NCBI GenBank assembly: GCA_022969815.1
Contig: GCA_022969815.1_4535.1
From: Escherichia coli
GTDB taxonomy: Bacteria > Pseudomonadota > Gammaproteobacteria > Enterobacterales > Enterobacteriaceae
Reading direction: 5' to 3' (one strand)
Length of the DNA: 64,000 nucleotides
Position numbers and translations under genes: made by a program. Positions 34,151-36,938 of the stretch are shown here, piece by piece. Below the pieces are notes generated by a model. The model did not search any database. It worked only from the letters and a program-made list of their open reading frames with translations, and had not been told where the DNA came from. How positions within the stretch are numbered: position 1 is the first letter of the stretch; each line of letters starts with the position of its first letter.

Positions 34151-34179
34151 TTGACAAGACACGAAGAACCTGGTAGACT
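34151..34179 (+). promoter_or_regulatory. sigma70-like promoter
   Basis: TTGACA - 17 nt - TAGACT immediately after terminator. Confidence 0.55.
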
Positions 34180-34207
34180 TGTCTCATCAACTAAGAGAGG
34201 AGGATAT

Positions 34208-35152
34208 ATGAAAGTATTAATCGGTAGTCGTGCGTTGGAAATGATTTGTCGTTCTCGTGGTGTAGAACTGTATCGTGCTTGCGTAGATCTGGATTACCTC
34301 TGCACTGAAGAAGAGTGGCAAGCAGAAGCCCAGAAATTCTCGAAAGATCGTTTCGTGGAAATTGTTGAACGTAAAGGTAACAAAGGGCATATCAAAATGA
34401 TCGCGGGTGCTCATCTGGAATACGATATTGCTCAACCAGGGGATTCTACAGAAGCATTGATCGAATACATTAAAGAGAATGCAGATCATCTGCCACATAT
34501 TGGTTACGATGTGGTTGCACCTTTGGATGTTTTGTATCTCCTGAAAATGAGTCACCGTTTTAAGAAGGACAGTCCTCACTTCCTGAAAACAATGAAGGAT
34601 ATCCACTTCATGCGTAACCTTGGAGCGAAGATCCCTGAAGAGTTGGAAGATACATACAAACTGCGTCAGAAGGAGTCCTATAATTACGGGCACCCTAATC
34701 TGAACGTGAAAAGTAAAGATTTCTTCAAGGGTGATGAAGTGCCTTATGTGTATGATCACGATACCATCCATGAAGCTGTTGCCGTGTTGGGTGATCCCGC
34801 TTATAAATCATACATGAAAGACGATAGCGAAGTGATGACCAGTAAAGAGAAGTTCTTTGCACAACCTAAACATATCCGTTTGCTGGGTGTTTACGAAGAA
34901 GCTTGTGTCCTGGCATTAGAGCGTTCACAGATCCCGTTTGGGGAAGATGTAGATGGTCCAACTCCTAAACAAAGTTTTATGATGGCTTTATCCAAAGTTT
35001 GTACCTCGATCACCAGTGGATGGTTTCGTGAATATGCCTGGGAAAACTTCCAAGTTGTGGTAAAACTGTATGAGCAAATGGGCCAAGATGATTACGTGGC
35101 ACGTTTTAAAGCAAATCTTCACATGGTGAAACCTTACGAAGGAGGTTATTGA
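34208..35152 (+). CDS. hypothetical protein (314 aa)
   Basis: ATG with AGAGAGGAGG SD; first gene of insulated four-gene cassette. Confidence 0.55.
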   Translation: MKVLIGSRALEMICRSRGVELYRACVDLDYLCTEEEWQAEAQKFSKDRFVEIVERKGNKGHIKMIAGAHLEYDIAQPGDSTEALIEYIKENADHLPHIGYDVVAPLDVLYLLKMSHRFKKDSPHFLKTMKDIHFMRNLGAKIPEELEDTYKLRQKESYNYGHPNLNVKSKDFFKGDEVPYVYDHDTIHEAVAVLGDPAYKSYMKDDSEVMTSKEKFFAQPKHIRLLGVYEEACVLALERSQIPFGEDVDGPTPKQSFMMALSKVCTSITSGWFREYAWENFQVVVKLYEQMGQDDYVARFKANLHMVKPYEGGY

Positions 35153-35153
35153 T

Positions 35154-35552
35154 ATGGGTTGGTGTGATCAGTCACAAAGTTACTTCAAAGTAACACATGT
35201 GGATCTCAATAAAGCAAGAGTGAAGTTGTTGAGTATTGAAAAAGAAACAGCAGCTATTGACAAACGCCTCCGAGAGAGTAAAGTGGTAATCACTTCTTGG
35301 TTCGGACTGAAACGTAAAATCCTTACGCAGCGAGAGCATGTAATTAAAAATATGCATGGTTGGGCTTGGTTCCACGACATGGCAAAACACTTGGGGTACA
35401 TTTCTACTGAAGAACACGACCTCTTGGAGCTACGTTATCGCCTTCCAGATGTAGAAGATTTAGACTTGTGGATCAGTTCCGAACAAATCTTCTTAACCGA
35501 GAGCGATTGGAAGAAAGTCAATATTTGTCTTAAATGGAGGGAGAATGAGTAA
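35154..35552 (+). CDS. hypothetical protein (132 aa)
   Basis: ORF abutting upstream stop. Confidence 0.5.
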   Translation: MGWCDQSQSYFKVTHVDLNKARVKLLSIEKETAAIDKRLRESKVVITSWFGLKRKILTQREHVIKNMHGWAWFHDMAKHLGYISTEEHDLLELRYRLPDVEDLDLWISSEQIFLTESDWKKVNICLKWRENE

Positions 35553-36228
35553 AGTAGTTTTATCAACATTTGATGGATCTGGAATCATGGTACTTCGTTA
35601 CGCAGAAGCAGGGCATAAATGCTACTGTGTAAATGCTGACGAAGGTGATCACGGGGCTTATGAAGTTCGCATGGAACATCCTAACATCACTTACGTGAAC
35701 GCATGGATTGATTCCAACTTCAACCCTGAAGATTACGGTATTCCTAAGCCAGATATTATCTTTGGCTTCCCTCCGTGTACCATGCTTGCTGGTTGCGGTA
35801 GTAAGCACGAACGTAGCGCAGAAGAATTGGAAGAAGCTTTGGCTAACATTCGTATCGTGGAAGCTTTAGGAAATAAATACAACGTTCCGTGGATGATTGA
35901 GAATCCAGTGGGTAAACTGTCAACATTGTGGCGTAAACCGGATTTCTATTTCGATCCTTACGAATATGGCGGATATCTGTTTGATGAAGAAGGCAGCTTC
36001 CACCCTAAAATGCCTACCCGCGACGGTTACACAAAGAAAACCTGTATTTGGCATGGCAATGGTTTTGTTAAGCCTGTGAAGAAGCCTGTGGAACATATTG
36101 GTTGCTTCTGGGGCTGGAAAAGTTTAGGCGGAGCAAGTGCGAAAACAAAACAACTCCGATCGTTAACTGCTCGCGGTTTTGCTCGTGCTGTGTTTTTATC
36201 TAACAACCTTTTAGATAAGGAGGAATGA
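35545..36228 (+). CDS. short DNA cytosine-C5 methyltransferase-like protein (divergent)
   Basis: LSTFDGSGIM (motif I-like FxGxG) and GFPPCTMLAGCG (motif IV-like Pro-Cys). Confidence 0.4.
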   Translation: MSKVVLSTFDGSGIMVLRYAEAGHKCYCVNADEGDHGAYEVRMEHPNITYVNAWIDSNFNPEDYGIPKPDIIFGFPPCTMLAGCGSKHERSAEELEEALANIRIVEALGNKYNVPWMIENPVGKLSTLWRKPDFYFDPYEYGGYLFDEEGSFHPKMPTRDGYTKKTCIWHGNGFVKPVKKPVEHIGCFWGWKSLGGASAKTKQLRSLTARGFARAVFLSNNLLDKEE

Positions 36229-36893
36229 TGACCCATTTAAAACCTTTTGGTGGAAAACCTATTGTGGCGTATCAAGTAGATCGTGATGATTGGGAAGGCA
36301 GTGTAGTTGTCTTTGGTAATCATTTCTTTGCTGTGCGTCGTAAAGGCGCAAGTATGTTGGATTGTGAGGAGGAGTATTGTCATGTCTCCCGCGCCAAAGA
36401 ATTCGACCAGTATGCAGAAAAAGGTTTTGTGCCTGTCAAAGCTTTACTGGAGGCAGGATGGTGGATACACTCTGCTCATGATGGTGTTAGACTTGACGAG
36501 TCTGTAGATAATCTTGAGGCAGATTTTGACGAATGGGAAGATGGCATGTATGTTGAGGAGGATCTTGTATTTTCCCTTGACGAGAAAAGTGTGTGGAAGA
36601 ACTGGGAAGAAATGGAACGTCACGCGCATTTTATCAACAACGCTTTGATTCGTAAAGCCTGGTTCACGGAGGCGGTGAAGATAGCGTATCCGCAATTCAC
36701 CTTTACAGAGGTTTGGGGCGGTCCCCACCACATCACCCATACAGCATTTTTCGACTTCCCTGGTTCACGTTACAAAGGTAATGTAATGTGGGACTGGGAT
36801 GAGAATGAAGTACCATCTGTTCAAGACTTTCGTTGTTATGTTTGCCAAGGCGATCAAGAAGCCCTTGACAAATACCTGCAAAGTCTGGTATAG
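36225..36893 (+). CDS. hypothetical protein (222 aa)
   Basis: ORF overlapping upstream stop; last gene before terminator. Confidence 0.5.
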   Translation: MMTHLKPFGGKPIVAYQVDRDDWEGSVVVFGNHFFAVRRKGASMLDCEEEYCHVSRAKEFDQYAEKGFVPVKALLEAGWWIHSAHDGVRLDESVDNLEADFDEWEDGMYVEEDLVFSLDEKSVWKNWEEMERHAHFINNALIRKAWFTEAVKIAYPQFTFTEVWGGPHHITHTAFFDFPGSRYKGNVMWDWDENEVPSVQDFRCYVCQGDQEALDKYLQSLV

Positions 36894-36910
36894 TGCAAGC
36901 AACTGAACAA

Positions 36911-36938
36911 AGCCTCCTTTTCAGGGGGCTTTTCTTTT
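36911..36938 (+). terminator. intrinsic terminator
   Basis: AGCCTCC-ttttca-GGGGGCT hairpin plus TTTCTTTTAT. Confidence 0.65.

Follow-up and report, generated by a model that had tools for sequence, protein, structure and literature searches.

The four-gene locus studied here, which carries a gene for a divergent cytosine-5 (C5) methyltransferase-like protein, raises the question of whether its genes together form a DNA or nucleotide modification machinery, as an earlier note on this DNA had proposed, or whether the methyltransferase works alone and the other three genes (g1, g2, and g4) accompany it. We addressed this question in a window of 64,000 nucleotides, the whole stretch of DNA that was analysed, and in related phage genomes.

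Anatomy of the operon

All of the elements described in the earlier note in the region 34151-36938 were found (Table 1), and the promoter, the four genes, and the two hairpins are conserved across related Phapecoctavirus genomes. The upstream hairpin, with a folding energy of -13.6 kcal/mol (z -4.2), is identical in nepoznato and ESCO13. In these same two relatives, the promoter keeps both its -35 and -10 hexamers and their 17-nt spacing, with a diverged spacer sequence. Promoter-like sites (at least 10 of 12 positions matching) number 38 in the window vs 16.5 +/- 4.9 in Markov shuffles, and terminator-like sites number 19 in an 11-kb region vs 8.4 +/- 3.0 by chance. The genes follow each other closely: g1 and g2 meet at TGAtATG, g2 overlaps g3 by 8 nt, and g3 and g4 meet at ATGATGA. 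The ATG start codon of g1 is preceded by GAGAGGAGG; an earlier GTG at 34148, proposed by the open reading frame tool, overlaps the promoter and is unused in the annotated relatives.

Table 1 Features of the locus, with positions in the window.
Feature	Position	Strand	Description
Upstream terminator hairpin	34117..34134	+	Intrinsic; 7-bp GC-rich stem; T-run to about 34143; closes the preceding transcription unit
Sigma-70-type promoter	34151..34179	+	TTGACA-17-TAGACT; extended -10 TG; 3' of hairpin 34117-34134
g1	34208..35152	+	314 aa; DUF7277 + DUF7275 protein; phrog_2141
g2	35154..35552	+	132 aa; phrog_16551 (PHROG 2.5e-48)
g3	35545..36228	+	227 aa; compact Dcm-like DNA cytosine-5 methyltransferase (probable); phrog_757
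g4	36225..36893	+	222 aa; phrog_8514; Trp-rich (10 Trp, 4.5%), two-domain
Second near-consensus promoter	36865..36894	+	TTGACA-18-TATAGT; lies in the 3' end of g4 and precedes hairpin 36909-36932
Closing terminator-like hairpin and T-run	36909..36932	+	dG -14.2 kcal/mol

The arrangement of a promoter, four coupled genes, and a terminator is thus real, every element being located and kept in relatives. The further claim that the cassette is insulated holds in part: it is bounded by two hairpins, but the second promoter inside g4 makes this insulation incomplete. This second promoter is conserved as far as phi92 and probably serves the next gene (36939-37445). The closing hairpin is conserved in nepoznato and ESCO13, and phi92 shows compensatory changes in the stem. 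The best explanation of the locus is a single operon of an E. coli Phapecoctavirus (Stephanstirmvirinae), transcribed by the host RNA polymerase, in which g3 alone can be assigned a function. Phages phiWec188/190 are 99.4% identical to this phage.

A probable compact methyltransferase of the Dcm-like family

The product of g3 has the AdoMet-dependent C5-methyltransferase fold that had been suspected from its motifs. Fold comparison reveals a Rossmann-like fold for AdoMet binding that carries motif I (FxGxG), the Pro-Cys of motif IV (PC), and the ENP of motif VI, as in the PF00145-type superfamily, and among known structures it is DNA methylases that g3 matches best. More specifically, FDGSGIM occupies residues 9-15 (motif I FDGSG, 9-13), GFPPC residues 74-78, with the catalytic Cys C78 in FPPC, and motif VI is E119-N-P (an ENV-like ENP); there is also a conserved pair, K164-K165, and a C-terminal RSLTxRGFARAV. 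In an alignment of 45 family members, no variation is seen at C78, E119, or K164 and hardly any at K165, and the family consensus at the catalytic motif is FPxC, which is FPPC in g3.

g3 matches phrog_757 across residues 1-223 (E 1.1e-82) and has 808 homologues of 215-245 aa. It has no match in Pfam or NCBIfam, falling under the PF00145 and NCBIfam thresholds, and a profile of its family recovered no relative by sequence among PDB sequences, so that its family membership rests on its fold and motifs and on links through PHROG and BLAST. It aligns weakly with M.HaeIII at motif I/IV, and a precomputed PF00145 match is present in 1 of 120 homologues among those listed. Judged from these comparisons, the family is a divergent subfamily, not a standard member of PF00145. 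The description of g3 as an atypical enzyme did not survive, since phrog_757 is a common compact family of phages and plasmids, already labelled Dcm or DNA methyltransferase in GenBank, and one relative has been characterised.

The Dcm-like methylase of KarlJaspers (Bas06, bas06_0055; Drexlerviridae) is 50% identical to g3 over the full length (E 3e-70). Both proteins are compact (236 aa from a 711-bp gene, and 227 aa) and share motif I, the FPPC Cys, the ENP Glu, the KK pair, and a C-terminal RSLTPRGFARAV. Nevertheless, the KarlJaspers enzyme is encoded by a single stand-alone gene, whereas g3 sits inside a translationally coupled four-gene operon in another phage family and context. About half of the residues differ, partly in the putative recognition segment, so the specificity could differ as well. 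The 711-bp dcm of K42, a 95%-identical phage, increases 5mC on Ec86 msDNA when expressed alone, as measured by LC-MS, and triggers retron Ec86, whereas the C82A/E128A/K175A/K176A mutant neither raises 5mC nor triggers the retron (bioRxiv 10.1101/2023.08.16.553469). These four residues align to C78, E119, K164, and K165 of g3, i.e. 4/4 are conserved, and by likeness to this homologue g3 would produce 5mC from AdoMet. That the K42 enzyme acts at CCWGG was an assumption taken over from host Dcm, its only support being the msDNA mutagenesis (bioRxiv 10.1101/2023.08.16.553469). Compared to canonical C5 methyltransferases (PF00145: M.HhaI, M.HaeIII, and E. coli Dcm), g3 is about 100 residues shorter, has a minimal recognition domain, and has motifs IX and X condensed to one C-terminal helix. 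The catalytic domain of DNMT3A/3B is 19% identical to g3, with no sign of common descent beyond the superfamily, and DNMT3A/3B, unlike g3, form DNMT3L-containing oligomers with regulatory domains.

It is likely, in our judgement, that g3 encodes a small DNA C5-cytosine methyltransferase that uses AdoMet, works alone, and belongs to the widespread Dcm-like family, and that the other genes are passengers or accessories. By analogy with the family, Cys78 (FPPC) would attack C6 of a flipped-out cytosine, Glu119 (ENP) would protonate N3, and the methyl group of AdoMet, held by the FDGSG loop, would be transferred to C5, with segment 130-200 presumably serving as a minimal DNMT3-like target-recognition region. 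The product would most likely be 5mC at CCWGG-type sites of phage and host DNA, which would provide Dcm-type methylation regardless of the host strain and protection against EcoRII- and SsoII-type enzymes, at the cost of making the phage visible to methylation-sensing defences, e.g. retron Ec86. Site counts in the window fit this proposal: CTAG, CCSGG, CTGCAG, GGATCC, CAGCTG, CACGTG, and TCCGGA are absent and GGCC reaches only 0.37 of the expected count, whereas CCWGG is spared (99 sites, 0.99 of expectation; GATC, 1.03), consistent with methylation protecting CCWGG, although host Dcm by itself could also be the reason. The BASEL study reports an exceptional sensitivity of this phage group to restriction-modification (PMC8594841), so any protection by g3 methylation would be narrow.

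Distribution of the four genes and alternative pathways

Of 50,697 phage records, 1,490 carry a member of the g3 family, as do 242 plasmid records; g1, g2, and g4 are found in 734, 129, and 148 phage records, respectively. At 75 of 80 viral g3 loci, g1, g2, and g4 are all absent, and the neighbours of g3 homologues on plasmids and in a Bdellovibrio prophage are unrelated. On this genomic evidence, the g3 family works stand-alone, without an obligatory partner. The full four-gene set is found only in Phapecoctavirus-type genomes; phi92 has no g1 at the locus, and an unrelated canonical PF00145 methylase, gp043, sits between its g2 and g4 homologues.

The three partners have no recognisable functional motif, as had been noticed before, HMM searches giving none beyond DUFs. 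For g1, Pfam, NCBIfam, and PADLOC give only DUF7277 and DUF7275 (1.7e-76 and 1.7e-09 in Pfam), and a profile search of PDB sequences gave no credible match. It has 2,330 homologues. Residues G6, S7, D27, D29, E71, H116, H124, H162, H184, D185, and H188 are invariant, and its N-terminus shows a GS...DxD...E nucleotidyltransferase-like motif; this motif and the annotation of one depositor suggest a nucleotidyltransferase-like DUF protein, perhaps combined with an HD-like part. The phage records with g1 include T4-like and jumbo phages, and g1 is found without g3 at 16 loci: its distribution, in large phages, is independent of that of the methylase. Neither g2 nor g4 has a match in Pfam, NCBIfam, or PADLOC. 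Every phage record with g2 is Phapecoctavirus- or phi92-like, and in Stephanstirmvirinae g2 is always directly 5' of the methylase (32% identity to phi92 gp044, E 8e-21); g2 is thus lineage-specific and restricted to this phage subfamily.

The notion of a linked cassette fails outside one lineage, given the 75 g3 loci without partners and the 16 g1 loci without g3, and that of a dedicated modification machinery finds no support, phi92 having another methylase and no g1 at the locus and no CmoA- or ligase-type partner having been found. The scattered distributions of g1, g2, and g3, together with the phi92 swap, indicate that the cassette is a lineage-specific operon and not a modification pathway. 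We therefore see g1, g2, and g4 as best explained by co-transcribed passengers or accessories, not pathway steps, even if the tight translational coupling and the g2-methylase-g4 order, which survives the exchange of the methylase, might reflect some functional connection.

A hypermodification pathway, in which g3 would add a cytosine handle (e.g. carboxymethyl from Cx-SAM, CmoX-like) for elaboration by g1, g2, and g4, could account for the tight coupling of four genes behind one promoter, their conservation across Phapecoctavirus, and the nucleotidyltransferase-like motif of g1; moreover, E. coli makes Cx-SAM, as is well established, so a phage CmoA would be unnecessary (PMC12783734). We nevertheless find this pathway very unlikely. 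The K42 homologue gives 5mC in E. coli even though Cx-SAM is present there. The signature of CmoX, which acts with CmoA and CmoY in Synechococcus phage S-B43, is SPPC plus Arg350, the Arg350 equivalent binding the Cx-SAM carboxylate (PMC12783734), whereas g3 has FPPC and its family FPxC. Domain searches of g1, g2, g4, and the flanking genes found no CmoA, CmoY-type AMP-forming ligase, or ParB-like domain. The independent distribution of g1 and g3, the canonical methylase of phi92 in a locus without g1, and the high restriction sensitivity of the group (PMC8594841) also argue against it, and the CmoX-like carboxymethylase reading was rejected as unsupported. An RNA target of g3, e.g. phage or host tRNA as for DNMT2, would fit with the tRNAs encoded by the phage and the very small target-recognition region, but is more improbable still: g3 resembles DNA methylases best in structure, the characterised K42 homologue acts on DNA (bioRxiv 10.1101/2023.08.16.553469), and the family is present on plasmids and in small phages without tRNA genes. 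This DNMT2-like reading was likewise rejected as unsupported.

g4 and its methylase neighbours

A third alternative is that g2, the methylase, and g4 form a functional unit, in which g4 (perhaps g2) would regulate the methylase, bind methylated DNA, or counter type IV restriction or retrons. phi92 retains g2 and g4 (gp041, 70% identity to g4) around its non-homologous PF00145 methylase, and most members of the g4 family (about 970 clusters at 50% identity) bear a CxxC...CxxxC zinc motif, a hint of nucleic-acid binding. Close relatives of g4 have diverse DNA methylases at most three genes away, far above chance: methylases account for 17 of the 140 genes at offsets 1-3 and for none of the 139 at offsets 4-12 (Fisher p = 9e-6), in a set of loci that are partly related phylogenetically and whose gene calls are crude. 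The 134 neighbours of 23 g4-like loci belong most often to the Pfam families PF00145 (9) and Dam PF05869 (5), the C5 methylases being detected by phmmer/jackhmmer and a Pfam scan. A distant g4-like gene abuts or overlaps a 262-aa PF00145 methylase in L109, where a 132-aa ORF 5' of the g4-like gene was considered as a g2 homologue and discarded for lack of homology; the order is Dam, g4-like, 569-aa PF00145 in L131, and g4-like, PapB-like, Dam in L127 and L130. Scans of genome collections found no g4 relatives in the first and two in the next, and a metagenome scan found mostly close relatives.

On the other hand, g4 is absent near most g3-family methylases, and a methylase was nearby in 0/7 more distant g4-family members, sampled regardless of context, and in none of the lambdoid (L126, L112) and Pseudomonas (L116) copies. 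Early and replication regions of phages are enriched in methylases anyway. The window copy of g4 has lost the zinc motif, and its fold gives no functional clue: no fold was recognised, a BFVD fold search returned only uncharacterised phage proteins, and a profile search of PDB sequences gave no credible match. Taken together, we regard the three-part unit as possible but rather doubtful. A role of g4 as the missing recognition domain of a truncated methylase was rejected, because the methylase that accompanies it in phi92 is not truncated and g4 is missing beside most genes of the g3 family. Only tentatively do we suggest that the g4 family is a new, ancestrally zinc-binding accessory to unrelated C5 and N6-adenine phage methylases, which might control their activity or shield the phage from host defences that recognise foreign methylation, e.g. 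type IV restriction or sensors of the retron Ec86 kind; we consider this unlikely as it stands.

With g3 as a stand-alone Dcm-like enzyme, the locus adds one more ordinary member to a phage family that is widespread, already annotated, and sampled by experiment, and the cassette itself, a lineage-specific operon, matters little. Its assignment to the K42-type Dcm family predicts self-methylation of Phapecoctavirus, a genus of therapeutic-candidate phages, at Dcm-type sites, so that these phages could set off retron Ec86-type defences. A single new lead comes from the link of g4 to several methylase families: g4 itself may be a methylation accessory and, as its relatives recur beside several unrelated methylase families, phage orphan methylases may have a dedicated partner.

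Operon anatomy and source phage

Across the region, identity is 99.4% to phiWec188 and phiWec190, two Escherichia phages, and about 76-81% to phages of the phAPEC8 type; on these identities we assign the window to a Phapecoctavirus (Stephanstirmvirinae) myovirus of ~150 kb. The earlier note described a promoter directly after a terminator, four coupled genes of 314, 132, 227 and 222 aa (here g1 to g4, in order) and a closing terminator, all of which were found as described (see table). The genes are joined by a TGAtATG junction (g1/g2), an 8-nt overlap (g2/g3) and an ATGATGA junction (g3/g4). 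The related phages nepoznato and ESCO13 share both hairpins, and they keep both hexamers of the promoter and their 17-nt spacing around a diverged spacer sequence. Compared with Markov shuffles, the window has about twice as many strong promoter-like sites (38 versus 16.5 +/- 4.9), and terminator-like sites are also commoner than expected across the 11-kb region (19 versus 8.4).

The cassette had also been considered insulated, but a conserved second promoter inside the end of g4 precedes the closing hairpin, so the insulation is not strict. This promoter and the closing hairpin are conserved as far as the sister-genus phage phi92, in which the stem carries compensatory changes, and because the promoter lies immediately upstream of the hairpin, transcripts of the next gene initiated there would begin with it. 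The four-gene order is conserved within Phapecoctavirus, with an HNH endonuclease sometimes inserted between g1 and g2; in nepoznato, this insertion breaks the translational coupling that these two genes show in the window.

The flanks carry a five-tRNA cluster (Tyr, two Ser, Arg and Met), a DprA-like gene and a Sir2-family gene, and the order g3...g4...Sir2 is retained in distant relatives such as comparison locus L003. The window may also encode another methylase, a very small one of 169 aa: the protein carries YYPTP...ITNPPF, a motif characteristic of N6-adenine methyltransferases, and its counterpart in phage PsgM04F is annotated "DNA methyltransferase", but its Pfam match is only weak.

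Table. Features of the window and of the comparison loci
Feature	Location	Details
Five-tRNA cluster	400-1176	
Second methylase candidate	28868-29377	
DprA-like gene	32034-32624	
Intrinsic-type GC-rich hairpin + T-run	34117-34134	dG -13.6 kcal/mol, z -4.2
Promoter TTGACA-17-TAGACT	34151-34179	extended -10 TG; starts 17 nt past the hairpin
g1	34208-35152	314 aa
g2	35154-35552	132 aa
g3	35545-36228	227 aa
g4	36225-36893	222 aa
Second near-consensus promoter TTGACA-18-TATAGT	36865-36894	within 3' end of g4, upstream of closing hairpin
Closing hairpin + T-run	36909-36932	dG -14.2 kcal/mol
Sir2-family gene	37430-38233	
phi92, orthologous locus	L115 2463-4600	
nepoznato, HNH endonuclease gene	L117 1876-2208	
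Salmonella plasmid contigs, g3-family gene	L105-L107 6001-6684	
g4-like gene	L127 2671-3294	
g4-like gene	L131 4989-5615	
C5 methylase adjoining g4-like gene	L153 4546-6095	

The g3 methyltransferase and its family

g3 has no match in Pfam or NCBIfam, belongs to phrog_757 ("DNA methyltransferase", E 1e-82) in PHROGs, and aligns weakly to M.HaeIII across motifs I and IV. Residues invariant across its family are D10-G-S12, the catalytic F75-P76-x-C78-T79, E119-N-P121, Y162-x-K164 and, in the C-terminal part, R205-S-x-T208...G211...A215. The fold of g3 is that of a C5-methylase, and its recognition segment is minimal and DNMT3-like; the AdoMet fold, whose absence was to count against the methyltransferase reading of the earlier note, is present.

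The family comprises at least 808 clusters at 90% identity, all of 215-245 aa, and its phage members, found among others in Drexlerviridae, Webervirus, Dhillonvirus and Vequintavirus, are often annotated "Dcm-like". On conjugative plasmids, its genes adjoin hok/gef and exclusion genes. In three Salmonella conjugative-plasmid contigs, a 64% identical methylase separates hok/gef and exclusion genes from DotM- and TraG-like transfer genes, a position resembling a plasmid leading or anti-restriction region.

Over its full length, g3 is 50% identical to bas06_0055 of phage KarlJaspers (E 3e-70). A preprint on retron Ec86 deals with the 711-bp dcm of KarlJaspers strain K42, 95% identical to Bas06, which was lost or disrupted in escape mutants and, when expressed alone, raised 5mC on msDNA by LC-MS and triggered the retron (bioRxiv 10.1101/2023.08.16.553469). 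The C82A/E128A/K175A/K176A substitutions inactivate K42 Dcm (same preprint), and these four residues align exactly to C78, E119, K164 and K165 of g3. The CCWGG specificity of K42 Dcm was assumed by analogy with host Dcm, with msDNA motif mutation as its only support (bioRxiv 10.1101/2023.08.16.553469). With a family found in 1,490 of 50,697 phage records and 242 plasmid records, and with a characterised relative, g3 is not the atypical enzyme it had been taken for: it is a genuine but ordinary member of the known, experimentally sampled, compact stand-alone phage Dcm-like DNA methyltransferases.

Linkage of the cassette genes and restriction-site avoidance

When the four cassette proteins were searched by tblastn against 103 fetched loci, 75 of the 80 viral loci with g3 had none of the other three genes, 16 large-phage loci had g1 but not g3, and the combination of g1, g3 and g4 was limited to contigs of myoviruses related to the lineage of the window. 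Phage-collection records number 734 for g1 (including T4-like, jumbo and Pseudomonas phages), 129 for g2, which is confined to Stephanstirmvirinae, 1,490 for g3 and 148 for g4. The orthologous locus of phi92 lacks g1; a g2 homologue (gp044, 32% identity, E 8e-21) precedes gp043, a canonical full-length PF00145 methylase of 329 aa (E 3e-44) outside the g3 family (motif-level match only, E 0.001), and a g4 homologue (gp041, 70% identity) follows it. A different methylase between g2 and g4 homologues, and no g1, amounts to a non-homologous methylase replacement with the flanks kept and g1 dispensable.

g1 consists of DUF7277 and DUF7275 and has 2,330 homologues. Its invariant residues (G6-S7...D27-x-D29...E71, plus His/Asp in the C-terminal domain) include a GS...DxD...E motif reminiscent of Pol-beta-type nucleotidyltransferases, and one depositor labelled a homologue "putative nucleotidyltransferase".

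The proposal of a self-contained modification machinery is not supported. The genes, expected to be a linked set, are largely unlinked in related genomes, as seen in the 75 loci and phi92. Domain searches found no CmoA-, ligase- or glycosyltransferase-type partner among the cassette partners and flanking genes, and the BASEL study reports exceptional sensitivity of these phages to restriction-modification systems (PMC8594841), both of which argue against hypermodification.

Restriction-site avoidance in the window is extreme. CTAG is absent (about 88-100 sites expected), as are CCSGG, CTGCAG, GGATCC, CAGCTG, CACGTG and TCCGGA, and GGCC, CCGG and GTAC occur at 0.37, 0.53 and 0.59 of expectation; CCWGG (0.99, 99 sites) and GATC (1.03) are not avoided. 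CCSGG is purged completely yet CCWGG is kept, the pattern expected of a genome in which CCWGG is reliably protected. A Dcm-type enzyme of the phage's own would ensure such protection, to which host Dcm could contribute too; by this inference, the pattern lends indirect support to Dcm-type methylation.

The g4 family and its methylase neighbours

The predicted structure of g4 is a confident two-domain model (pLDDT 87.7) with no meaningful match in structure libraries. A profile search gave 967 family clusters at 50% identity, and about 115 of 134 full-length representatives have a zinc-ribbon-like CxxC-(10-45)-CxxxC motif right after a conserved GWW. Carriers include P0142 and the g4-like genes of L127 and L131; in g4 of the window and in proteins close to it, all four cysteines have been lost.

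More distant g4-like genes adjoin other methylases: one overlaps a 262-aa PF00145 gene in three loci (L109-111), the one in L131 is flanked by a Dam-family gene and a 569-aa PF00145 gene, and those in L127 and L130 have a Dam-family gene two genes away. In L153, the adjoining C5 methylase looks split into overlapping ORFs of 194 and 332 aa, which could reflect a frameshift, a pseudogene or a two-subunit enzyme. In the 134 genes lying no more than three positions from one of 23 g4-like loci, PF00145 (9) and Dam PF05869 (5) are the Pfam families seen most often. Methylases are 8 of 48, 5 of 47 and 4 of 45 genes at offsets 1, 2 and 3, and none of the 139 genes at offsets 4-12 is one (Fisher p = 9e-6, with loci not all independent and crude gene calls). 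No methylase lies near seven distant representatives picked regardless of context, nor near the lambdoid and Pseudomonas g4-like copies. Only in the subfamily around g4 does the association seem real, and this suggestive link in genomes between the g4 family and DNA methylases is the only novel element here.
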